Shown here: piece after piece, positions 23,572 through 60,949 of the stretch
Layout of the letters: each line of letters begins with the position of its first letter
How positions within the stretch are numbered: position 1 is the first letter of the stretch
Origin: Betaproteobacteria bacterium
GTDB lineage: Bacteria; Pseudomonadota; Gammaproteobacteria; Burkholderiales; SG8-41
Assembly: GCA_025363435.1 (NCBI GenBank)
Contig: JANYDY010000090.1
Coordinates: forward strand, 24,030-88,029
DNA length: 64,000 nucleotides
Reading direction: 5' to 3'
The notes under the pieces: generated by a model
Database searches by the model: none
Told to the model about the DNA's origin: nothing
What the model saw: the letters and a program-made list of their open reading frames with translations, nothing else
Position numbers and translations under genes: made by a program

Positions 23572-24813
23572 TTACTTCAGGTTGACCAGCGTTTGCAGCA
23601 CCGCGTCCTGCGTCTTGATCGATTGCGCGTTGGCCTGATAAACACGTTGCGCGGTGATCATGTTGACGAGCTCGGCGGTAAGATCGACGTTCGACGATTC
23701 GGTCGCCGATGCCTGCGTCGCACCGAGGTCGCCGCTGCCGGGCGCGCCGACCACCGGCAATCCGGAATCGGCAGTTTCATCCCAGCGTCCATTGCCGCTC
23801 GGCCGCAGGCCGCGCGGATCGGAAAAATTCGCCAGCACGAACTGGCCGAGATTGCGGCTCTGCCCGTTCGTGTAGTGGCCGACCATGATGCCGTCGGCGC
23901 CGACGTTGAAGCCGGCAAGGCGGCCGGAAGCGAAACCGTCCTGCACCAGCGAATTGACCGCGAAGCTGGCGCCGAACTGCGTGGTGCCGCTGAAATCGAG
24001 CGCAAAGTTCATCGGGCTGGTCGCGCCACCAGCGATCGTTAGCGCCACCGGCGAAATCGGCATGACGGTAGTCAGAGCACCGCTTGCGTTGAAATTCACA
24101 TTGATCGGCAGCCCGGCGCCGCCGCCGAGATCGACGTTGGCAACCGCGGTGCCGTCAACCGTGGCGTGCAGATCCCACTGGCCGGCGGTTGCCGTCTTCA
24201 CAAAATATAGCGTGAACACATGCGAATTGCCGAGACTGTCGATAACCGAACCCGAAGTGGAATCGTTGTAGCTGGTCGGATCCGACGCGTTGAACACGCC
24301 GGTGGCCGGCAGCGTTTCGCTCGAATCAAGGTTCAGGCTGGACCTGAAGCTGGAGGTCGGCGTCGGCGGCAGTTGCGCGCTCGAAATCTGCATCGCCGCC
24401 GGTGCGGTCGGCACAATGTTGCCGGTGGCGTCAACACCGTAGCCGGTCACCCGGAGATTGTCGGAGGTGACGATGTAGCCGGCGTTGTCGAGGTGGAACT
24501 GGCCGTTGCGCGTGTACGAAATCGTGCCGCTATCGCTCAGGCGGAAAAAACCCTTGCCGTTAACCGCGATGTCGAGCGGATTGTTGGTGACAGTGATCGC
24601 GCCCTGCGTGAACTCCTGTTCGATCGCCGCCACCTGCGTGCCGATGCCGATCGCAGTCGAGCCGGAACCGTTGAGCGAACTGGCGAACACATCGGAGAAC
24701 AACACGCGCGATTGTTTGAAGCCGACGGTGCCGGCGTTCGAAACGTTGTTGCCGATGACGTCGAGACTTTGCGACGCCGCATTAAGACCGCTTAATCCTG
24801 TTTGGAATGCCAT
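23572..24813 (-). CDS. flgE: Flagellar hook protein FlgE
   Basis: 413 aa. MAFQTGLSGLNAASQSLDVIGNNVSNAGTVGFK; C-terminus MITAQRVYQANAQSIKTQDAVLQTLVNLK. Confidence 0.93.
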   Translation of the reverse strand: MAFQTGLSGLNAASQSLDVIGNNVSNAGTVGFKQSRVLFSDVFASSLNGSGSTAIGIGTQVAAIEQEFTQGAITVTNNPLDIAVNGKGFFRLSDSGTISYTRNGQFHLDNAGYIVTSDNLRVTGYGVDATGNIVPTAPAAMQISSAQLPPTPTSSFRSSLNLDSSETLPATGVFNASDPTSYNDSTSGSVIDSLGNSHVFTLYFVKTATAGQWDLHATVDGTAVANVDLGGGAGLPINVNFNASGALTTVMPISPVALTIAGGATSPMNFALDFSGTTQFGASFAVNSLVQDGFASGRLAGFNVGADGIMVGHYTNGQSRNLGQFVLANFSDPRGLRPSGNGRWDETADSGLPVVGAPGSGDLGATQASATESSNVDLTAELVNMITAQRVYQANAQSIKTQDAVLQTLVNLK

Positions 24814-26590: not shown

Positions 26591-27304
26591 ATGAAGGCTT
26601 TTCTGCACTGCACCGCAGCTATTCTTCTGGCGATCGGTGCGAGCCTGTGCGCAACGCCTGTCGCCGCGCAAACACCCGCCATCCAGTCCGCCGCCTCGAT
26701 TCATCAAGCCGTCGAGCAGTTCGTGCGCCAGCAAACCAGCGGCCTGCCCGGCAAAATCGGCTACACCATAGGCGCCATCGATGCGCGCCTGGTGCTGCCG
26801 GCCTGCGGCGCGCTTGAAATATTTGTGCCAGCGGGCGGGCGTTTGTGGGGGCCTACTAACCTGGGCGTACGCTGCGGCGGCCCGGCGCAATGGACGATTT
26901 ACGTCAATGTCGATGTCAGAGTCGGCGGCAGCTATCTAACCGCCTCGCGCGCGCTCGCACCGGGCCAGGTCATCAGTGCGGCCGATATTGCCACGCAAAG
27001 CGGCGACCTCACGCTACTGCCGCAGGGTGTGCTCGCTAATATAGAGAACGCCGTCGGCCGGATCGCCGTCTCGTCGATCGCCGCCGGCCAGCCGCTGCGT
27101 TTCGACCAGTTACGCGCCCCGCTCGCCGTGCAACAGGGCCAATCGGTCAAATTGCTCTCCGGCGGCAACGGCTTTCGCGTCAGCGCCGAAGGCCGTGCCT
27201 TGAATAATGCACAGGAAGGGCAGCTCGCCCAGGTGCGCACCAACGGCGGCCAGACCGTTAGCGGCGTGGCGCGTGCCGGCGGCACGGTTGAGGTTGCGTT
27301 TTAA
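26591..27304 (+). CDS. flgA: Flagellar P-ring assembly chaperone FlgA
   Basis: The ATG at 26591 gives the signal peptide MKAFLHCTAAILLAIGASLCATPVAAQ. C-terminal FlgA/SAF-type region (AAGQPLRFDQLRAPLAVQQGQSVKLL). The track ORF starts at 26471. Confidence 0.85.
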   Translation: MKAFLHCTAAILLAIGASLCATPVAAQTPAIQSAASIHQAVEQFVRQQTSGLPGKIGYTIGAIDARLVLPACGALEIFVPAGGRLWGPTNLGVRCGGPAQWTIYVNVDVRVGGSYLTASRALAPGQVISAADIATQSGDLTLLPQGVLANIENAVGRIAVSSIAAGQPLRFDQLRAPLAVQQGQSVKLLSGGNGFRVSAEGRALNNAQEGQLAQVRTNGGQTVSGVARAGGTVEVAF

Positions 27305-27419
27305 GTCAGGCTGCCGAACCGCCGCATTTCGGCACAATGTCACTTAAATATATTTAATATATCGATCATGTGTTTACCCGTATTCGCGACCCCGCCAGCC
27401 GGCTATTTACCGGGTCGGC

Positions 27420-27446
27420 TAAAGTTTCGGCCGCGCCATACCGTAA
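27420..27446 (+). promoter_or_regulatory. Candidate sigma-28 (FliA) promoter of flgMN
   Basis: TAAAGTTT is a perfect match to the enterobacterial -35 TAAAGTTT. After N11 comes TACCGTAA, only ~4/8 to GCCGATAA. It sits 35 nt upstream of the flgM ATG. Confidence 0.4.
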
Positions 27447-27481
27447 TTTGCGATAGTCCGATCTTGCAAAGGTAGAGTCAC

Positions 27482-27787
27482 ATGAAAATCGATAACAGCC
27501 TCAAAACGATAGTCGGCGGGCCGTCTCTTGAAGACAGCACCCGTCCGGCCAGAAAATCCGGCAGCGGGTCCACCGCGGTTGCCAACGACAAAGTTGAACT
27601 AAGCAATGTCTCAGCCAGCCTGCAGGCCATCGAAAAAGGTTTCGCCGACACCCCGGTAGTCGATCAGGGCAAAGTGGACGAGATCAAACAAGCGATCGCC
27701 AACGGTCACTTCAAAGTCAACGCCGACAAAGTCGCCGACCGCCTGTTGAAAACCGTGCAGGACCTGATCAACGCACACAAAGCGTAA
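27482..27787 (+). CDS. flgM: Anti-sigma-28 factor FlgM
   Basis: 101 aa. C-terminal VDQGKVDEIKQAIANGHFKVNADKVADRLL is the FlgM sigma-binding region. Confidence 0.85.
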   Translation: MKIDNSLKTIVGGPSLEDSTRPARKSGSGSTAVANDKVELSNVSASLQAIEKGFADTPVVDQGKVDEIKQAIANGHFKVNADKVADRLLKTVQDLINAHKA

Positions 27788-28274: not shown

Positions 28275-28760
28275 TTTTTCTTTGCGGCAAATTTTTGCGC
28301 AAGCGCAGAGTCGCTTGGGCCTAGTCACGGCCGTCGGGTCGCAGTTGCTTACTGGCCTCGGCGTCACACGTCTCCAATTCCGCCTGCTATTTCAAGTGAA
28401 TTGCCTCGCCTTATGGTCTGCGGTAACGTATTAGCTTAAGTAATGGTGGCGGTTATAGGTATAGCCGGGGTCATAGTCGACCTCCCTCATTGTGCGAGAC
28501 GGAGCAATGGTAATCCCATGGCTCATTCTGCCGATCGTTATCATTTGGGCATTCCTCGCCGGAGCAGGACTGCTAATGATGGTCACGTCGAAAATTGGAG
28601 ACCAATCCGAGCCGGTTCGATCGCGAACTCAACCAGCGCGGACGATTGCAGTCTTGTCGATTCTCTAATGCATATACTGTTGCTCGGGCCCAGCCTCAGG
28701 ACGGTTGATTGAAAAATGGAGTCGAGGTGAATTATCCAAGCAGAAGGTAAATCGGAAATC

Positions 28761-29009
28761 ATGCCGGACACGCCAAGATACTGGTTTCCTGCAAAACGCT
28801 ACGGTTGGGGTTGGAGCCTGCCTGTAGTCTGGCAAGGCCGGGCGGTCATGGCGGCTTTTGCAATTCTTCTTCTCATCGGCGCGGCGACCTTGCTGCCGGG
28901 CTATGGCCCGGCAGCATTCGTCGCCTTTGCAGCGCTGCTCTGCGCACTTCTAGTCGCAATATGCTGGATCAAAGGCGAGCCTCCATCCTGGCGGTGGGGC
29001 GGCAAATAA
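28761..29009 (+). CDS. Small membrane protein, unknown function
   Basis: 82 aa. WFPAKRYGWGWSLPVVWQGR followed by two hydrophobic helices. GC looks lower than in neighbouring genes. Confidence 0.5.
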   Translation: MPDTPRYWFPAKRYGWGWSLPVVWQGRAVMAAFAILLLIGAATLLPGYGPAAFVAFAALLCALLVAICWIKGEPPSWRWGGK

Positions 29010-39609: not shown

Positions 39610-39927
39610 TCAGGCGAGGCCGGCGGCCGGCTGACCCGCCATCAACACAGCGGCATGCGAAGCGGTCATCGGCTTGTTTGTGTTGTGGTCGGTAAGCAAA
39701 CCGAGTATCGCGCGGTCGTCGCAGCGGAAACGGCACATCAACATATTGGACGCCGCCATCTTCATGATCTGGCCGGGCGACAGCTGATCAAGAATTTCCG
39801 CGACCTCCTGGCTAATGCCGAGACGAAACACGGCGGTTGCAATATCCATGCGGATCATTTGCTGCGCGAGCAGCAGGTAAGCCAGATTGGTTTCGCGGAT
39901 TTCGCCCAGCAGTTGATCTTTGCTCAT
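39610..39927 (-). CDS. flhD: Flagellar master regulator subunit FlhD
   Basis: 105 aa. LLGEIRETNLAYLLLAQQMIRMDIATAVFRLGISQEVAEIL. Confidence 0.93.
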   Translation of the reverse strand: MSKDQLLGEIRETNLAYLLLAQQMIRMDIATAVFRLGISQEVAEILDQLSPGQIMKMAASNMLMCRFRCDDRAILGLLTDHNTNKPMTASHAAVLMAGQPAAGLA

Positions 39928-40045
39928 GACCCTCTCCTTTAAATGTCGCGTTGACGTTTACGATGGAGTGAATCATGCGCGCCGCTGCGTGAAAACTTAA
40001 TCGGACAGATTCGATGAATTGACCTGCTTGATGCGCGTTATGTTT

Positions 40046-40064
40046 TGTAGGAAGACTTCCTACA
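40046..40064. promoter_or_regulatory. 19-bp perfect palindrome in the flhDC upstream region
   Basis: TGTAGGAAG-a-CTTCCTACA (9-bp arms), ~120-135 nt upstream of the flhD start codon. Confidence 0.35.
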
Positions 40065-40251
40065 TCGCCGGCACGCCCGCAATCGAAGTCGTTATGCGTC
40101 CATGACTTGCGTGATTCGACTCAACGAAAGTCTGAGCAGCAAACTGCAAACCGCGAATTACCGCGCGTTTTACCGGGCTGTTTGCAGCGTCAATCCACGC
40201 GCACCGGCCGTATCCTGCGTCAAGTCACGGGGAACACCAGACAGGAACACT

Positions 40252-40883: not shown

Positions 40884-41217
40884 GATCCGGCTCCAAGCGC
40901 GACTGATTCTAGGCCAACAATTGGACTCTGTCTAATTCGCAAATATCGTTCGCGTTGGTGCCTGTGCGCTGCCACAGCGCGCCGGCGTGTGACTTATCGC
41001 ACAGCGGCATTGCGCGCTGCGTCTGCAAGCGCCCCGGTGCTAGAATTCGAAGCGGCGCTCTGCCAACCAGAAATCAATTTAACTCATTGTTTTTGTTTTT
41101 AAATAATGCGTCAATTTCACGCGATTTCCGTTCATTCCAACAGAGTGACCGCTTATCGGTAAAGCGTGGAATTGCCCGTCCATCGTCATTAACATGCCAA
41201 CGTCTGGGGAGTAAATC

Positions 41218-41697
41218 ATGCAACGTTCTTCCGGCTTTACCTTGATAGAACTGATGATCACTTGTGCGATCGTGGCGATTCTTGTCGCCGTCGCACTGCC
41301 TTCCTACCAGCAACACATGATCCGCGCGGTGCGCTCCGCCGGACAGCAGTTTTTGCTCGATCTCGCGCAGCGCCAGGAACAGTACTTCATCGACGTGCGC
41401 TGGTACGCTGCGGGCATCGCCACCACATCGACTGCGACCAAGATCACGATGTCGACGCCTGACACCGTTGCTGCAAAATATCAGGCGCCGGCATTTACGG
41501 TGCCAGTGCAGGCTGCCGGTGTAGTGCCGACGTTTACCATATGCCTTGCGCCGATCGCCGGCGGCACAGTCAGCACGGACGGCAGACTGTGCACCAACAA
41601 TGCCGGACAGCGCTGGCGCGAAGTCGACAGCAACAGCGCCTACGACAGCGCCAAAGATTGCCTCTGGGAACGCAACACGTGTACGCCGACTCCGTGA
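41218..41697 (+). CDS. pilE: Type IV pilin-like protein (PilE-type)
   Basis: 159 aa. Prepilin leader MQRSSG|FTLIELMITCAIVAILVAVALPSYQ. Confidence 0.85.
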   Translation: MQRSSGFTLIELMITCAIVAILVAVALPSYQQHMIRAVRSAGQQFLLDLAQRQEQYFIDVRWYAAGIATTSTATKITMSTPDTVAAKYQAPAFTVPVQAAGVVPTFTICLAPIAGGTVSTDGRLCTNNAGQRWREVDSNSAYDSAKDCLWERNTCTPTP

Positions 41698-51468: not shown

Positions 51469-52395
51469 TCAGGCCGAGGCGAGATTCTTCGGCAGCGGAA
51501 AGGTGACGCGTTCGGTGATCCCGGAAAGCTCTGATACTTCCGTCGCACCGAGTTCACGCAGTCGCGCGACCACTTCCTGCACCAGCACCTCCGGTGCGGA
51601 AGCGCCGGCGGTAATGCCGACGCAGCGGCTGCCGGCGACCCATTGCGGGTTCAATTCACGGGCGTTATCCACCATATAGGCAGCGACACCCTGGTTCGCC
51701 GCGACTTCGCGCAGGCGGTTCGAATTGGAACTGTTCGGCGAGCCGACAACTATCACGACGTCGCACTGTTGCGCCAGTTCCTTGATCGCGTCCTGGCGGT
51801 TTTGCGTGGCGTAGCAAATGTCGTCCTTGCGCGGACCGGCAATTTTCGGAAACCGCGCGCGCAGCGCGGCGATGATCTGGCTCGCGTCATCAACCGACAA
51901 AGTAGTCTGGGTCACGAAGGCGATATTGCTTTCGTCAGTTACCTTCAAGGCAGCGACATCGGCGGGTTTTTCGACTAGATACATGCCGCCTTGCGACTGC
52001 CCCATCGTACCTTCAACTTCGGGGTGGCCGTGATGGCCGATCATGACGATTTCGCGGCCCTGCTCGCGCAGCTTGGCAACTTCGACATGCACCTTGGTCA
52101 CCAGCGGACAGGTCGCATCGAAGACGCGCAGGCCGCGTGCTTCGGCGTGTAGACGCACCGCCTGCGAAACGCCGTGCGCGCTGAAAATCACTGTGCTGCC
52201 GGCCGGCACCTCGTCGAGATCTTCGACGAAAACCGCACCTTTGGCACGCAGATCCTCGACGACGAATTTGTTGTGCACGACTTCGTGGCGAACGTAGATC
52301 GGCGCGCCGTGTATCGACAGCGCGCGTTCGACGATTTCAATCGCACGATCAACACCGGCACAAAAGCCGCGGGGTTTGGCGAGAAGTACTTGCAT
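51469..52395 (-). CDS. ispH: 4-hydroxy-3-methylbut-2-enyl diphosphate reductase IspH (LytB)
   Basis: 308 aa. [23 protein letters not shown]...FSAHGVS...[10 protein letters not shown]. Confidence 0.97.
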
Positions 52396-52438: not shown

Positions 52439-52900
52439 TCAGGATTTTCGCTGCGGCTTCAGGCTGTCCCACACCACCAGCGCGGCACCGCAGGTAATCG
52501 CCGAATCAGCAACGTTGAACGCCGGCCAGTGCCAGCCGGTGGCGTGAAAATCGAGAAAATCGACCACCGCACCGACTAAAATGCGATCGATCAGATTGCC
52601 CAGCGCGCCCCCCAGTATCAGGCTGAGGGCAAAGCAAAAAACCGTTTCGCGCGCATGCCGGCGCAGCAAAAACACGATCCAGACCGAGGCGATCAACGCA
52701 ATGCCGATGAAAAACCCGCGCTGCCAGCCCGCCGCAGCGGCGAGAAAACTGAAGGCCGCACCGGCGTTATGAACCAGCACGATATTAAAAAAAGACGTTA
52801 TCTCAACGCTGCGGCCACCGCCCAACCATTGCGTTATCGCATATTTCGACGCCTGGTCGAGAACGATGAGAAGCGCCGCAATGCCGAGCCAGCGGCTCAT
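52439..52900 (-). CDS. lspA: Lipoprotein signal peptidase II LspA
   Basis: 153 aa, 4 TM. VHNAGAAFSFL and GGALGNLIDR...VVDFLDF motifs. Confidence 0.95.
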   Translation of the reverse strand: MSRWLGIAALLIVLDQASKYAITQWLGGGRSVEITSFFNIVLVHNAGAAFSFLAAAAGWQRGFFIGIALIASVWIVFLLRRHARETVFCFALSLILGGALGNLIDRILVGAVVDFLDFHATGWHWPAFNVADSAITCGAALVVWDSLKPQRKS

Positions 52901-52910
52901 GTGCGGTCAC

Positions 52911-55862
52911 TCATGCAAAGCGGCGCGGCTCGCCCGCTCCGTAAAGGTTCGCCACGCAGCGCGCGCAAATCTCCGCATGCGCCGCATCGGCGCCAACATC
53001 GGCGCGGTAATGCCAGCAGCGTTCGCACTTGCTGTACGTCGTTGCGCTGACTTTCACGCTGACGCCCTCAAGCGCCGTGGCTATCGCACCGGCGTCACTG
53101 CCTTTATTGACAGTGGTCCGCGAGGTAATAAAGGCAAAACGCAAATCGTCGGCAAATGAACTCAACAGCGCATGATTTTCGCCATCAGCGTAGAGATCGA
53201 CCTCGCCGGCAAGCGAAGAACCGATCTTGCCGGCAATGCGCAGGTCTTCGAGCAGCTTCAAGACGTCGGAGCGCAAAGCACGCAACTTCTGCCAGCGCCC
53301 GCGCAAGACATCGGCATCGCGCGGCTGCGGAAACTGATACCAGGTCTGTTCGAAAACGCTGCTGTCAGTGCCATTGAGCGTTTCCCAGACTTCGCTGGCA
53401 GTGAACGACAACACCGGCGCCATCAGGCGCACCAGTGTCTGCGTCATGTGATAAAGCGCGTTTTGCGCCGAACGCCGCGCGCGGCTGTTGGCGCCGGCGG
53501 TATAGAGGCGGTCTTTCAGCACATCGAGATAAAACCCGCCGAGGTCTTCGGAACAGAAGGACTGCAGTTTCTGCGCGACGTTGTGAAATTCGTAACGTCC
53601 GTAATGGCCGGGCGATTGCGGTTCCTTGACGCCAAGTTCGGCAGGCGCCAGCGCGGCCTGCAAATCCTGCGTCATGACCAGCGCATAGCGGTCTATTTCG
53701 AGCCAGTCGTCGACCGGCAGCGCATGCGCTTTGGGGTCGAAGTCGGCGATGTTGGCCAGCAGAAAACGCAGCGTGTTGCGGATGCGCCGGTACGATTCGA
53801 CGACGCGCTTCAAAATTTCATCCGAAATCGACAACTCGCCCGAATAATCGGTCTGCCCGACCCACAGACGCAGGATATCGGCGCCGAGCGTATCGAGCAC
53901 TTTCTGCGGCGCGATCACGTTGCCCACCGATTTCGACATCTTGCGGCCTTTGCCGTCGACGACGAAACCGTGCGTCAGCAAGCCGCCATAGGGCGCGACA
54001 CCGTTGATCATGCACGACACCAGCAGCGACGAATGAAACCAGCCGCGGTGCTGGTCCGAGCCTTCAAGATACAAATCGGCCGGAAACTGCAACACATCCT
54101 TGTGCGAGCCGCGCAACACCGTTTCGTGCGTCGAGCCCGAATCGAACCAAACGTCCAGCGTGTCGCGGATTTTTTCGTACTGGCCGGCATCGGCGCCGAG
54201 CAGCTCGCCTATATCGAGCTGCTGCCATGCTTCGATACCCGATTGTTCGACTTTTTGTGCAATCGTTTCCAGCAACTCAAGCGTGCGCGGATGCAGTTGG
54301 CGCGTCTCTTTGTGGATGAACAGCGGCATCGGCACGCCCCACTGGCGCTGGCGCGACAGGGTCCAGTCCGGACGGTTGGCGATCATGCCGTGCAGACGCG
54401 CCTTGCCCCAGTCCGGATAAAACTTCGTCGCTTCGACGGCGCGCAACGCCGTCGCGCGCAACGTCTCCGCCGGTTTGACGCCGCCGTAACCGGGCACCGC
54501 CTCCATGCCGGCGAACCATTGCGTGGTGGCGCGGTAAATGATCGGCGACTTGTGGCGCCAGCAATGCATATAGCTGTGCAGCTCCGGCTTCTCGTGAAAC
54601 AGCGCACCGTTTTCACGCAACTTCTCGACGATCTGCGGATTAGCTTTCCAGATGTTGAGCCCGCCGAACAGAGGTAGCGCTTCGCTGTAACGGCCGCTGC
54701 CCTGCACCGGCGTCAGGATTGCGTCGTCCTTCATGCCGTTGGCGCGGCAGGAGTTGAAGTCTTCGATGCCGTACGACGGCGCGCAGTGCACGATGCCGGT
54801 ACCAGTTTCAAGCGTGACGTATTCGGCCAGATAGACAGGCGAGGTGCGTTCGTAGAAAGGATGACGGAACTTGATTAATTCCAAATCCTTTCCGAGGCAG
54901 GTTGCCAGAATCTTGCTTCGCGTTATCCCATAGCCCGTCAAAAGAGGTGAGACATAATCGTCGCCATATGGACTCTGAACCAAAGGTCCTTTTTTTCCCA
55001 TTTGAATCGGAGGGCGATCATATTCCGGGGGAAATGCGAATTTTGACGCGACAATCAATAGTCCCCTGTCGGTTTCAACTAGGGCATATTCGAAATCTGG
55101 ATGTACATTAAGTGCTTGGTTGGCCGGTATCGTCCACGGCGTAGTGGTCCAGATCACGATCCAGCCCTTGGCGTCTGGCAGATTCGTCAGTCCGAACGCC
55201 TTGGCAATTTTGTCCGGCTCCGCGAACGGAAAACCGACATCGACCGCGGTGTCCTTGCGATCGATGTATTCGACCTCGGCCTCGGCCAGCGCCGAGCCGC
55301 AATCGAAGCACCAGTTCACGGGCTTCAGGCCGCGATAGACGTAGCCCTTCCCGATCAGCTTGCCGAGCGCGCGGATTTCGTCGGCTTCATTCTTGAAATC
55401 CATCGTCAGGTACGGGCGATCCCATTCGCCGAGCACGCCGAGACGGATGAAATCTTTTTTCTGGCGCTCGATCTGCACCGCCGCATAGGCGCGCGACTTC
55501 TGCTGCACTTCGCCCACGCTCAAGGCCTTGCCGAATTCTTTTTCGATCTGGATTTCGATCGGCATGCCGTGGCAATCCCAGCCCGGCACGTACGGCGCAT
55601 CGAAACCCGACAGCGATTTCGATTTGACAATGATGTCCTTGAGGATTTTGTTGACTGCATGGCCGATGTGAATATCGCCATTCGCGTACGGTGGCCCGTC
55701 GTGCAGAATGAATTTCGGCCGCCCCTGCGACGCCGCACGGATCTGTTCATAGAGCTTGCGCTCCTGCCACGCTTTCAACATCAACGGCTCGCGTTTAGCG
55801 AGATCGCCTCGCATCGGAAACGGCGTGTCCGGCAGGTTCAGGGTTTTTTTGTAATCAGCCAT
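52911..55862 (-). CDS. ileS: Isoleucyl-tRNA synthetase IleS
   Basis: The ATG at 55862 gives [13 protein letters not shown]; 983 aa. HIGH ([11 protein letters not shown]), KMSKS, C-terminal zinc-ribbon cysteines (CERCWHY...CARC). The track ORF starts at 55919. Confidence 0.97.
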
Positions 55863-56808
55863 TGCGGGTCTTGCGGTTGGTTGCACGCGCGGCAAAAAAG
55901 CCTTTCGCGTTTTCGACATCGCGCGCGATCTGGCGCTTTAATGTTTCGATGTCGGCGTATTTTTCCTCGTCGCGGAATTTATGCAAAAACTCGATCTTCA
56001 AATGTTTACCGTAGATATCGCGATCGAAATCGAACAGATGCACTTCAAGACAAGGCCGCGCGTCACGCGCTACAGTGGGCCGCACACCGAGACTCGCCAC
56101 ACCCGGCAGTATCCTGCCGTCCAGGCCCTGCACTTCAACGGCAAAAATGCCCGCCAGTGGCGGCCGGTTGTGTTTCATCAGCACGTTGGCAGTCGGGCAT
56201 CCGAGCGTGCGGCCGAAACCGTCGCCGTGGACGACGCGCCCGCTGATCGAATAAGCACGGCCCAGAAGGCGTTGCGCACCCGTCATGTCGCCGGCTGCCA
56301 GCGCCTCACGCACCGCAGTGCTCGAAACGCGTATGCCGTCAACCAAAACACTGGTCATCGCATGCACTTCAAAACCACAGCGCGCCTCGGCGGCCTTCAG
56401 CATGACGAAATCGCCGGCGCGGCGCGCGCCGAAACGAAAATCGTCGCCAACCTGTATCCAGCGTGCACCGAGACCGCGCTGCAGCAGGCGCTCGATAAAG
56501 TCTTCCGGTGCGGTTTTCGCAAAATCGAAATTGAAACGGCAGATATGCACGCGCTCGACACCGGCGCGTTCAAGCAATTCAAGTTTTTCGCGCAATGAGG
56601 TCAGGCGTGTCGGCGCTTTGTCCGGCGCAAAAAATTCGCGTGGATGCGGTTCAAACGTCATCACGCAGGACGGCAGCGAGCGCTCGCGCGCCGCCGCGCT
56701 CAAACGCGCCAGCATCGCCTGGTGGCCGAGATGTACACCATCGAAGTTGCCTATGGTCAGGGCAACAGGCATCTCGGCAGCGTCCGGTATGGTGCGTGAG
56801 ATGCGCAT
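55855..56808 (-). CDS. ribF: Bifunctional riboflavin kinase / FAD synthetase RibF
   Basis: The ATG at 56808 gives [22 protein letters not shown] adenylyltransferase motif and a C-terminal riboflavin kinase domain ([11 protein letters not shown]). Confidence 0.95.
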
Positions 56809-56935
56809 ACAAGCCAAGCTAAAAGCTTGAATTGTAGCGTGTTTTAGACGAAGCGGTCTAGGCGCGCGGACTCGTTACTGGCGAAGCCAGCCGTTTGCGG
56901 GCAGCGCGCCACGCCCTCGCTCTCGGCCCGAAGTT

Positions 56936-57724: not shown

Positions 57725-58248
57725 TTTGCTGCAGCAGCTTGTGCCGTAGCAGCACGCCGCCGGAACAGCGGCTGCGGGCGCTCAACCGACGTCTGATAGG
57801 CTTCGCTGAAATCACCGAAGGCCGACAACGCGGCCTTCGCATCTTCGCCGGCTTTCAGATCGAAAGCATCAAAGCCGCAGCGTGAAAGGTAGAACACCAC
57901 ATCGCGAATCACGTCGCCGATCGCGCGCAATTCGCCGGTCCAGCCGTACCGCTCGCGCAACAGGCGCGCAATCGACGAACCGCGGCCGTCGGTGAAATGC
58001 GGGAAGTCAACGGCGACCAGATCAAAATGATTCAGGTCGCCGGCAATCACGGCGGGATCGTCGGTATTGGCAAGCCACACGCCCAAGCGCCCTTTGCGCG
58101 CGAGCAAGGCATCTTTCTGCGCCAGCCACTGCGCCAGCGGCACGATCACATCGCCTTCCGGCACCGCCGGCAGGCTTTTGTCGGCGCCGGCCTTAAGCAG
58201 CTGCCAATTGTTCGCCGCGACCTGCCGGTTTTTTATGATGCCCGCCAT
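57721..58248 (-). CDS. DUF934-family protein associated with sulfite reductase
   Basis: The ATG at 58248 gives MAGIIKNRQVAANNWQLL. FDLVAVDFPHFTDGRGSSIARLLRERYGWTGELRAIGDV matches my recollection of the DUF934 pattern. Overlaps the cysI 3' end by 56 nt. Confidence 0.8.
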   Translation of the reverse strand: MAGIIKNRQVAANNWQLLKAGADKSLPAVPEGDVIVPLAQWLAQKDALLARKGRLGVWLANTDDPAVIAGDLNHFDLVAVDFPHFTDGRGSSIARLLRERYGWTGELRAIGDVIRDVVFYLSRCGFDAFDLKAGEDAKAALSAFGDFSEAYQTSVERPQPLFRRRAATAQAAAAK

Positions 58249-59893
58249 ACACATGCTCCTTGAATGGTTCAATGCCGATGCGTTGCACCACATCGATAAA
58301 ACGTTCTTCCGCGCTATCGCGGCGTTCAATGTAAAGATCGATCAACTTCTCGACCACGCCGGGCACCTCGGCTTGCGACACCGACGGCCCGAGCACCTTG
58401 CCCAGCGCCGCCTTGTTGCCCTGCGCACCGCCGATCGAGATCTGGTAGAACTCGGCGCCCTGCTTGTCGACACCCAGCACGCCGATATGACCGACATGAT
58501 GATGACCGCAGGAATTCATGCAACCGGAAATATTCAGATCGAGTTCTCCGATGTCATAGAGATAATCGAGATCGTCGAAACGACGCGTAATGGCATCGGC
58601 TACCGGCAGCGATTTCGCATTGGCCAGTGAACAGAAATCACCGCCCGGGCAGGCGATGATGTTGGTCAGGAGGCCGATGTTCGGCGTTGCCAGCCCGAGT
58701 TCACGCGCCTGCTGCCAGAGCTCGAATAGATCCGACTGGCGCACATCGGCGAGTATCAGATTCTGCTCGTGCGACACGCGCAATTCGCCGAAACTGTAGC
58801 GATCGGCAAGATCGGCCACTGCTTCCATTTGCGCATCCGTCATGTCGCCGGGTGCGACGCCGGTTTTTTTTAGCGACAGCGTGACCGCCGCATAACCGGC
58901 GACCTTGTGCGCCTGCACGTTGCGGCGTGCCCAGCTGGCGAATGCCTTGTCGCGGCCGAGAGCGAGCACATAACCGGACGCGAGTTTGTCCAGTTTTTGA
59001 TAGGCCGGACGGGTGAAGCGTTTAGTGATGCGCTCGACTTCCTCCTCGATCAGCGTTGCCGGACCATCTTTCAGATGCGCCCATTCGGCTTCGACCTGCG
59101 CACGGAACACCTCGGGCTTGGTTTCCTTGACGAGTATCTTGATGCGCGCCTTGTACTTGTTGTCGCGCCGGCCGTAGCGGTTGTAAACGCGCAGCACGGC
59201 GTCAAGATAGGTCAGCAGATGCTGCCACGGCAGAAATTCGCGGATCACCGTGCCGATGATAGGCGTGCGACCGAGGCCGCCACCGACGTAAACGCGGAAG
59301 CCGATGTTGCCCTTGTCGTCGTACTGCGCCTGCAACCCGATGTCATGCACCTGAATGGCAGCGCGGTCGGTTTCAGCGCCACTGACGGCGATCTTGAATT
59401 TGCGCGGCAGGAAGGCGAATTCCGGGTGGAAAGCAGACCACTGACGGATAATTTCGCACCACACCAGCGGATCAACGATCTCGTCCGGCGCCACGCCTGC
59501 AAAATGATCAACCGTGGTATTGCGTATGCAATTACCGCTGGTTTGAATCGCGTGCATCTGCACACTCGCCAGCTTCTCAAGAATATCGGGCACGTCCTCA
59601 AGCTTGGGCCAGTTGTACTGGATGTTCTGGCGCGTGCTGAAATGAGCGTAGCCGCGGTCCCATTTGCGCGCAATGTAAGCAAGCGCTCGCAATTGACGGG
59701 AGGCCAGCAGGCCATAGGGGATGGCCACCCGCAGCATAGGTGCAAATCTCTGTATATAAAGACCATTCTGCAGTCGCAGCGGCCGGAAGTCGTCTTCGGA
59801 CAGGCTGCCTGCCAGAAAACGACTCGTCTGGTCGCGAAACTGCGCGACCCGGTCGTCGACGATGCGTTGATCAATTTCGTCGTAGATGTACAT
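58193..59893 (-). CDS. cysI: Sulfite reductase hemoprotein (nitrite/sulfite reductase family, CysI-type)
   Basis: 566 aa. Siroheme/4Fe-4S cysteine clusters (IIACPGGDFC and SGCMNSCGHHH), duplicated half-domain architecture. Confidence 0.92.
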   Translation of the reverse strand: MYIYDEIDQRIVDDRVAQFRDQTSRFLAGSLSEDDFRPLRLQNGLYIQRFAPMLRVAIPYGLLASRQLRALAYIARKWDRGYAHFSTRQNIQYNWPKLEDVPDILEKLASVQMHAIQTSGNCIRNTTVDHFAGVAPDEIVDPLVWCEIIRQWSAFHPEFAFLPRKFKIAVSGAETDRAAIQVHDIGLQAQYDDKGNIGFRVYVGGGLGRTPIIGTVIREFLPWQHLLTYLDAVLRVYNRYGRRDNKYKARIKILVKETKPEVFRAQVEAEWAHLKDGPATLIEEEVERITKRFTRPAYQKLDKLASGYVLALGRDKAFASWARRNVQAHKVAGYAAVTLSLKKTGVAPGDMTDAQMEAVADLADRYSFGELRVSHEQNLILADVRQSDLFELWQQARELGLATPNIGLLTNIIACPGGDFCSLANAKSLPVADAITRRFDDLDYLYDIGELDLNISGCMNSCGHHHVGHIGVLGVDKQGAEFYQISIGGAQGNKAALGKVLGPSVSQAEVPGVVEKLIDLYIERRDSAEERFIDVVQRIGIEPFKEHVYGGHHKKPAGRGEQLAAA

Positions 59894-60004
59894 GTTTTAT
59901 TAGCTTCTTTTTTCGAACGAGTCGCATAGTATCAACCGCGCGTTATACCGGGAAAGACTGTTATGTTAGAATCTAATAACCTATGCTTATTTACAGATAA
60001 CTCC

Positions 60005-60949
60005 ATGAAAATTCAGCAATTACGCTATCTGGTCGAGGTCAACAAACAGGGCCTCAATCTGTCCGCCGCTGCCGAAAAGCTGCACACCTCCCAACCGGGC
60101 ATCAGCAAACAAATTCGCCTTTTGGAAGATGAGCTTGGCGTCGAAATCTTCGTCCGCAACGGCAAACGCGTTGTCGCCGTCACGCCGCCCGGCACGGCCA
60201 TCCTCGAAATTGCGCAGCGCATTCTGCACGAAGCCGAAAATCTCAAACAGGCCGCACAGGACTATTCAAATCAGGACGCCGGCAAACTGACCATCGCGAC
60301 CACGCACACGCAGGCGCGTTACGCACTGCCCGAGGTGATCCGCCGCTTCAGCCAGAAATACCCCAAGGTCAAGCTCGGCCTGATCCAGGGTAACCCGGTG
60401 CAGATCTGCCAGTTCGCGCTGAGCGGGCAGGCGGACTTCTGCATCGCTACTGAAGCGATCTCGAGCTTCGAAGAACTGGTGATGCTGCCCTGCTACGGCT
60501 GGAACCGCTGCGTCATCGCACCGCCCGATCACCCAATACTGAAGAAAAAAACGCTGACTATCGAGGAGATTGCGCGTTATCCGATCATCACCTACGATTT
60601 CGCCTTCACCGGCCGCTCGCAAATCAATCATGCGTTCGAAGCCAAAGGCCTGAAACCGAATGTTGTGCTGACTGCCATAGACTCCGATGTCATCAAGACC
60701 TATGTCGCGCTCGGCCTCGGCATCGGCATACTGGCAAAAATGGCCTACGACCCTGAGCAGGACAGAAACCTGCGCGCGATGGACGCGAGCCACCTCTTCG
60801 AATCGAGCACCACGCGCATCGGCATCCCGCGCAAGGCCTATCTGCGCGGCTATATTTACGATTTCATCGAAATGTTCGCGCCGCAGTTAAGCCGCAAAGT
60901 GGTGGACGATGCGGTGCACGGCAAACCGAAAATCGACTACGACATGTGA
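60005..60949 (+). CDS. cysB: LysR-family regulator, CysB/Cbl-like
   Basis: The ATG at 60005 gives MKIQQLRYLVEVNKQGLNLSAAAEKLHTSQPGISKQIRLLEDELG, a CysB-type HTH. Divergent from cysI. Confidence 0.8.
   Translation: MKIQQLRYLVEVNKQGLNLSAAAEKLHTSQPGISKQIRLLEDELGVEIFVRNGKRVVAVTPPGTAILEIAQRILHEAENLKQAAQDYSNQDAGKLTIATTHTQARYALPEVIRRFSQKYPKVKLGLIQGNPVQICQFALSGQADFCIATEAISSFEELVMLPCYGWNRCVIAPPDHPILKKKTLTIEEIARYPIITYDFAFTGRSQINHAFEAKGLKPNVVLTAIDSDVIKTYVALGLGIGILAKMAYDPEQDRNLRAMDASHLFESSTTRIGIPRKAYLRGYIYDFIEMFAPQLSRKVVDDAVHGKPKIDYDM

Follow-up and report, generated by a model that had tools for sequence, protein, structure and literature searches.

The ileS gene of a Betaproteobacteria bacterium of the Burkholderiales, which encodes isoleucyl-tRNA synthetase (IleRS), contains a short in-frame patch of low guanine and cytosine (GC) content in the region encoding the CP1 editing domain. 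We conclude, with a probability of roughly 0.7, that this patch is a real sub-genic mosaic that arose by recombination with a divergent ileS allele. The gene lies on contig JANYDY010000090.1 of assembly GCA_025363435.1, in a stretch of 64,000 nucleotides (contig positions 24,030 to 88,029) that we call the window and to which all coordinates refer (Table 1). In the scenario that we favour, some 0.25-0.3 kb of the resident ileS would have been replaced by homologous recombination (gene conversion) with the matching tract of the divergent allele. That allele would belong to a 'long-loop' class, in which the ~60 canonical codons of this segment become 89 and include a 29-residue Pro/Gly-rich loop.

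Composition and codon usage of the patch

At positions 54871-55110 of the window, 108 of the 240 nucleotides are G or C (45%), compared with 66.7% in the flanking stretch 54661-54720, 58.5% in ileS overall and 61.0% in the window. These values reproduce exactly the hand counts of an earlier reading that was made from the letters of the stretch without database searches (the sequence-only reading). That reading had also described the patch as in frame and rich in A and T at third codon positions, and this holds too: the peptide that it quoted corresponds to amino acids (aa) 249-339, and GC at third positions (GC3) is 0.40-0.44 in the patch against 0.75 elsewhere. Measured over aa 245-333, GC3 is 0.43, compared with 0.75 for the remainder of ileS, and GC at first and second positions is nearly flat. 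In 30-codon windows, GC3 is 0.37-0.50 across aa 256-345 and 0.7-0.9 on both sides.

A likelihood scan with two change-points placed the tract at codons 249-354 (54801-55118), with a GC3 of 0.43 inside and 0.76 outside. The log-likelihood ratio of this partition was 22.4, while the maximum among 200 permutations was 12.0. The left edge of the tract is sharp (codons 243-251), whereas the right edge is diffuse (codons 306-357).

As a background for these values, we determined GC3 in 14,623 windows of 80 codons from the 45 putative genes of the 64-kb window (mean 0.748, standard deviation 0.056). The lowest value of all, 0.40, was that of the ileS patch at 54876-55115. The next gene minimum was 0.537, and none of the 13,694 windows of other genes reached 0.40. 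Codon choice within amino acids follows the same pattern. GGA accounts for four of the seven Gly codons of the patch but for three of 72 in the rest of ileS, CCT for 4/10 versus 3/42 Pro codons, and CTA and TTA together for 3/11 versus 1/88 Leu codons. ATA and TCA are likewise enriched. The patch therefore carries a foreign compositional and codon signature.

As a control, the homologous segment of 75 further ileS sequences from beta- and gammaproteobacteria was set against the remainder of each gene. Segment GC3 minus that of the rest was -0.02 on average (standard deviation 0.057), against -0.33 for the gene in the window. Since segment GC3 in these genes is close to that of the rest of the gene, the dip is no general trait of this stretch of the gene.

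The nearest relatives lack the insert

In a collection of 5.8 billion protein clusters, the proteins closest to the window IleRS are 950-955 aa long and 84-86% identical to it overall. Six of these (P0002-P0007, 950-954 aa) have no insert and show 88-91.5% amino acid identity outside aa 196-345, and the window backbone is closest to P0002 and P0003 (91.5%). The segment from TTPWT to HPF has 89 aa in the window IleRS and 60 aa in these nearest relatives, with the reading frame kept, so the suspicion voiced in the sequence-only reading that the patch may carry extra residues was justified. In that reading, a low-GC segment shared by close relatives with congruent phylogeny had been named as the mark of an old, vertically inherited feature. 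The opposite was found, as the nearest relatives are without it.

For DNA comparisons we used the five sister contigs for which nucleotide sequences were available (L002, L085, L090, L091 and L092), with the 50-61 kb part of the window as the blastn query. All were collinear with the window at 77-86% identity for more than 5 kb on each side of the patch. All five alignments also broke off at the patch, stopping at ~55045-55092 and restarting at 54863-54883, which leaves a core at ~54870-55090 without nucleotide homology to the sister genomes. The breakpoints are thus discrete, with native collinear flanks, and the left GC3 change-point is at codon 249. In the codon alignment, there are one or two nucleotide differences to the sisters through codon 244, after which nearly every codon differs. 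Nonsynonymous divergence (dN) from the sisters rises from 0.02-0.09 in the flanking blocks to 0.37-0.46 at aa 245-340, and synonymous divergence (dS) within the patch is saturated against three of the five. Patch codons that specify identical amino acids show a significant synonymous excess in comparisons with P0006, P0027 and P0031.

Because the identity to the sisters stops and resumes at conserved coding sequence, namely that of WTTTPWT at the left edge and that of FRHPFY and GTGIVH at the right, these motifs likely provided the homology for the crossovers.

A second variable stretch, with normal GC3, lies just upstream of WTTTPWT (aa 201-244, 55131-55260). At aa 205-244, the window and P0005 keep the common state (81% nucleotide identity), and identity to P0003 and P0006 is low. 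P0002, P0003, P0004, P0006 and P0007 share a derived 'AFRDFAAIGKAFGG' state upstream of WTTTPWT, and the backbone tree nests the window among them. An extension of the tract in the 5' direction to ~aa 200 was considered and rejected, given the match to P0005 and the common state of the window in that stretch.

The insert-less L002, which encodes P0003, has a mild GC3 dip of its own in the codons homologous to aa 245-340 (0.59-0.61 versus 0.75). Its blastn alignment also reaches ~45 nucleotides deeper into the left edge of the patch than those of the other sisters. The dip and the longer alignment may be left over from a shared import since overwritten, or be noise.

The extra residues form a probable surface loop

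In the window IleRS, the canonical 'DLxEACL' stretch is replaced by a Pro/Gly-rich loop. Besides the 28 consecutive extra codons listed in Table 1, there is one further extra codon at aa 314, which brings the insert to 29 residues. An AlphaFold2 model built from a 120-sequence alignment shows no secondary structure for aa 275-303, where its per-residue confidence score (pLDDT) is below 50, a value to which the shallow alignment of the segment may contribute. According to this model, the insert is probably a flexible surface loop of the CP1 editing domain. Between other carriers of this type of loop, dN/dS in the insert core is ~0.07-0.15, a range which indicates that the loop is held under purifying selection in those lineages.

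Inside the loop, a run of seven T at 54990-54996 (A7 in the mRNA, GGA AAA AAA GGA) places a slippage-prone homopolymer in an essential gene. With 12 A or T runs of at least seven in the 64 kb, this run is unexceptional.

The same loop type occurs on unrelated backbones

Among the 120 best homologues, the loop type KFAxPxEYxRxPxxMGxxGP (the KFA type) was otherwise found only in P0027 and P0031. The window loop is 53-57% identical to theirs over 75 aa, and a pairwise BLASTP comparison of the insert alone with the loops of these carriers gave an E-value of 4e-10. The backbones of the three proteins are only 74-75% identical to one another, and the nearest neighbours of the other two carriers also lack the insert (P0115 at 93% for P0027 and P0084 at 89% for P0031, each with a bootstrap of 200/200). 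The phylogenetic incongruence is thus local: the window loop is homologous only to those of P0027 and P0031, while the backbone is nearest to the insert-less P0002 and P0003.

The patches of P0027 and P0031 are also low in GC3 (0.54-0.56 versus 0.76-0.83). For P0027, the comparison with P0115 at the DNA level is especially close. At aa 41-200 the two are 98-100% identical, and at aa 401-680 every 20-codon block except three reaches 92-100%. Inside the patch, identity drops to 0.58 and 0.35, and GC3 there is 0.40-0.60 for P0027 against 0.74-0.94 for P0115. P0031 and P0084 show the same pattern. The P0027-type patch was present in four independent contigs (L001, L086, L087 and L088), and the P0031 gene in two (L083 and L084). 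The genes of P0027 and L087 have close backbones (dS 0.21) and divergent patches (dS 0.84), from which it follows that several KFA-class alleles circulate.

Over the whole of ileS, blocks of 98-100% nucleotide identity alternate with blocks of 75-88% between L001 (P0027) and L093 (P0115). At aa 681-980, their identity is 0.75-0.90 and dS is 0.57, compared with 0.15-0.17 elsewhere. To judge from these alternating blocks, ileS in the P0027/P0115 group looks recombinant along its entire length.

Other long-loop types, dissimilar to one another, occupy the same site in IleRS of Burkholderiales (P0108, P0011, P0034, P0102, P0037, P0089 and P0040; L003, L006 and L013). Some of them are sporadic within insert-less clades (P0108, P0011, P0034 and P0102), and the nearest backbone neighbours of P0108 are all insert-less. 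GC3 is normal in the long-loop types for which DNA was available (L003, L013 and L006). A large related clade, whose proteins are 979 aa long, has a long loop of its own at the site, apparently by vertical descent and with native GC3.

Searches for a donor and for other origins

Searching a word index of proteins with the patch alone returned no usable candidates. In a scan of the genome collection, the best match reached 73% and no KFA-type loop was among the matches listed, where other low-GC Burkholderiales had canonical segments. The contigs examined from a metagenome scan were all of the P0027 lineage. We also built a profile from four KFA-type patches, which recovered only short IleRS fragments from the 5.8-billion-protein collection; their loops were all canonical or of other long types, none of the KFA type. 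Plasmid and phage collections contained no relative of the patch beyond canonical chromosomal-type ileS at 31-39%. Literature searches brought up no account of the KFA loop or of sub-genic ileS mosaics.

Among 1.84 billion cluster representatives, HMMER matched the 79-aa patch to a single entry, a eukaryote-like tandem-repeat protein, and we judged this match spurious. This set says little about IleRS variants, as clustering at 50% identity probably merges them. Since the search brought up no credible match outside IleRS, the insert does not appear to have been captured from another protein family. An origin by internal duplication or repeat expansion was rejected, because the window holds no second copy at the DNA or protein level. 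The insert does not resemble an intein or mobile element either: it is only 29 aa long, with no other copy in the window and no credible match outside IleRS.

We also considered whether an embedded feature holds GC low, and rejected this, as we found no Rfam family, no sigma-70 promoter or terminator consensus, and no antisense open reading frame (ORF) that is conserved across the three carriers. The patch does contain an antisense ORF of 69 aa with a TTG start (54902-55111, plus strand). This ORF is most likely due to chance, as not all three carriers have antisense frames that stay open throughout the patch.

Weighing recombination against the alternatives

The sequence-only reading had proposed a recombination tract from a low-GC donor. 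Its first part is supported by the sisters without the insert, the breaks in the blastn alignments and the loop on other backbones. The low GC of the donor comes from composition only, and the searches described above revealed no native host. Going by its A/T-ending codons, the patch seems to come from a source whose GC3 is below that of this 61%-GC genome, and to have arrived too recently to be ameliorated.

Several observations weigh against recombination as the origin of the patch. Only one contig, from one assembly, is known to carry the window allele. Its nearest sisters are fairly distant (backbone dS 0.56-0.96), and the contrast with them is less clean than that between P0027 and P0115. 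The synonymous excess at identical-amino-acid codons of the patch is not significant in the comparison with P0003. In the alignable flanks of the insert, the window patch has ~63% nucleotide identity to the other two carriers, so that the link to them rests on the amino acid homology of the loop. Neither a donor nor a native lower-GC host of the KFA loop emerged from the genome, metagenome and protein searches. Finally, low GC3 is kept in all three carrier lineages despite synonymous saturation between their patch alleles, and it could therefore be a maintained property instead of a transient mark of recent import.

If low GC3 were intrinsic to the KFA allele, the patch might reflect an old dimorphism of short and long CP1 loops in soil Burkholderiales, kept by selection and shuffled by recombination. 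Low GC3 in all three carriers, although their patch alleles are synonymously saturated, would fit such a history. The same is true of the several KFA alleles in circulation, of the hypervariability of aa 201-340 even among insert-less sisters, and of the many other long-loop types at the site with their partly sporadic distribution. However, we found nothing that would hold GC3 low, be it a conserved antisense ORF, an Rfam family or a promoter or terminator consensus, and the other long-loop types have normal GC3. Recombination onto this backbone would still be needed, and the dimorphism differs from the explanation that we prefer only in the source and age of the allele. We consider it unlikely.

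An extension of the recombination reading, which we regard as doubtful, is that the site between WTTTPWT and FRHPFY is a recombination hot spot. Short and long loop cassettes would then be exchanged repeatedly among uncultivated soil Burkholderiales and kept by purifying selection. If true, this would point to diversifying or balancing selection on the surface of the editing domain, exerted by some partner or antagonist, for instance a toxin, a factor from a phage, an inhibitor among natural products or a tRNA or protein contact peculiar to the lineage.

It is improbable that the patch is an assembly chimera, in which ~250 bp of the ileS of a co-occurring organism were spliced into a metagenome-assembled contig. 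The protein is indeed a singleton on one 97-kb NCBI contig, and the patch is bounded by motifs that are conserved in all IleRS. Yet like patches, at the same site and with the same signature, occur in independent assemblies from other samples (the four P0027-type and two P0031 contigs). A chimera would require two exact in-frame switches within ~285 bp, and the conserved run at the left junction is only ~20 nucleotides, which we judge to be below the k-mer length that assemblers typically use. We know of no donor sequence from a co-occurring organism.

Vertical descent, with a lineage-specific insertion that diverged quickly under relaxed or different constraint and no transfer, is very improbable. 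The predicted disorder of the loop (pLDDT <50) and the fast evolution of the segment in relatives are compatible with it. The insert, however, is homologous to those of P0027 and P0031 on unrelated backbones, and vertical descent would demand a loss in every intervening insert-less lineage. The drop in GC3 also covers codons of conserved amino acids (aa 245-262), which fast protein evolution leaves unexplained, and the loop is under purifying selection in the other carriers.

The possibility that the imported tract alters sensitivity to mupirocin-like IleRS inhibitors can practically be dismissed: it draws only on the general background, given in the sequence-only reading, that horizontally acquired ileS variants are a known resistance route, but the patch occupies the part of the CP1 editing domain that separates WTTTPWT from GTGIVH, outside the synthetic site, HIGH and KMSKS are canonical and in native sequence, the enzyme is of the IleRS1 type with its zf-FPG_IleRS C-terminus, and no relative of the patch was found in the plasmid and phage collections searched. 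A relevance to antibiotic resistance is not apparent.

Comparison with known mosaic genes and insertions

Mosaic essential genes that arise by interspecies recombination are well known, for example the penicillin-binding-protein genes of Neisseria and Streptococcus. The ileS patch resembles these in being a block of divergent composition in a native, syntenic essential gene, with edges in conserved coding sequence and related blocks on unrelated backbones. It differs from them in lacking an apparent selective agent or resistance phenotype and a sampled donor, and in adding a 29-codon length difference in a surface loop beyond substitutions.

Whole genes for aminoacyl-tRNA synthetases are frequently transferred horizontally, including the ileS2 or mupA type that encodes IleRS2. 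Here too, foreign ileS sequence would have entered a genome, but only ~0.3 kb of the 2.95-kb gene would be foreign, on a native and syntenic IleRS1 backbone and with no plasmid- or phage-borne part. An acquired ileS of the MupA or IleRS2 type, which has a eukaryote-like backbone and an altered synthetic site and is often carried on plasmids, was accordingly rejected, as the backbone is IleRS1 and sits in the chromosomal ribF-ileS-lspA-ispH cluster.

The CP1 editing domains of class Ia synthetases (IleRS, LeuRS and ValRS) carry lineage-specific insertions, and 'conserved signature indels' are used as clade markers. Like such insertions, the KFA loop is a discrete insert that occupies a constant place on the surface of the editing domain and does not disturb the catalytic residues. 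Unlike signature indels, it marks no clade, being found on three separate backbones that each have insert-less nearest neighbours, and it comes with a compositional anomaly.

The mechanism is unsurprising. What is unusual is that the exchanged block contains a 29-codon indel in the editing domain, and that this loop class, low in GC3 in every case, sits on three or more backbones. On this reading, even an enzyme as universal and as essential to translation as IleRS can be mosaic over stretches of only a few hundred bases. Phylogenetic trees of ileS, or 'signature indels', that are built on the patch segment would mislead, and in the binning and quality control of metagenome-assembled genomes a compositional island within a core gene need not be an error. 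By recurring on three backbones, with low GC3 and under purifying selection, the KFA loop points to an editing-domain surface with a possibly lineage-dependent role.

The ileS gene, its enzyme and its neighbourhood

The protein collection contains an exact 983-aa match to the window IleRS (P0001). The full ORF spans 52911-55919 on the minus strand, and homologues support M20, at 55862, as the start. An upstream in-frame ATG at 55919 would add 19 residues (55863-55919, 57 nucleotides) and overlap the 3' end of ribF. No such extension was present in the N-termini inspected among the closest homologues (P0003-P0007 and P0027), and this ATG is probably not the true start.

Pfam domains in the protein are tRNA-synt_1 (2.6e-135), Anticodon_1 and, at the C-terminus (aa 945-971), zf-FPG_IleRS (PF06827). 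The best-matching solved structures are of IleRS1 (8c9e, 2e-238; 1ffy, 3e-210), while IleRS2 entries of 1032 aa reach only ~1e-95. HIGH (in GDIHIGHAV) and KMSKS are both canonical in the translation and lie in sequence of native composition. Judged by these signature motifs and its class I core, the enzyme is a canonical bacterial-type IleRS1. The distinction between IleRS1 and IleRS2, and horizontally acquired ileS variants as a resistance route, are described in a preprint (bioRxiv 10.1101/2023.01.31.526100).

The translation and alignment show that the editing residues WTTTPWT, N248, H359 and D368 are all intact. We take these to correspond to T241-T246, N250, H333 and D342 of E. coli, based on hand mapping onto the E. 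coli sequence. In nucleotide sequence, the stretch with His359 and Asp368 shares 89-94% identity with P0003 and P0006. As HIGH, KMSKS and the editing residues are unchanged, the function of the enzyme is probably retained, and both charging and proofreading should remain normal.

The order ribF-ileS-lspA-ispH is common to relatives and provides a native chromosomal context.

Table 1. Coordinates of the ileS gene, its patch and its neighbours in the window
Feature	Coordinates	Strand	Description	Evidence
ileS coding sequence	52911..55862	minus	983 aa, stop codon included in span; bacterial-type IleRS1	ORF list and translation
Low-GC tract, probable mosaic	54846..55130	minus	codons 245-339; GC 45%, GC3 0.40-0.44	change-point scan, blastn breaks, codon usage
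28 consecutive extra codons	54960..55043	minus	aa 274-301; Pro/Gly-rich loop	codon alignment with insert-less sisters
WTTTPWT threonine-rich editing motif	55131..55151	minus	aa 238-244; conserved left anchor of patch	
FRHPFY	54852..54869	minus	aa 332-337; conserved right anchor, where sister homology resumes	
Editing-site His359 (GTGIVH) and Asp368 (YGIEDF)	54759..54788	minus	native composition, just downstream of patch	translation and alignment
ribF (FAD synthetase / riboflavin kinase)	55855..56817	minus	upstream neighbour	Pfam FAD_syn and Flavokinase; blastn collinear, 80-84%
lspA	52439-52900	minus	downstream neighbour	Pfam Peptidase_A8
ispH/lytB	51469-52395	minus	downstream neighbour	Pfam LYTB

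Other low-GC stretches of the window

In windows of 240 nucleotides, GC also falls below 50% at 27272-27565, 28523-28762, 39813-40174, 40980-41336, 55808-56077 and 59731-60192. The stretch at 55808-56077 spans the junction of ribF and ileS, and that at 59731-60192 lies between two divergent ORFs (58193-59893 on the minus strand and ~59930-60946 on the plus strand).

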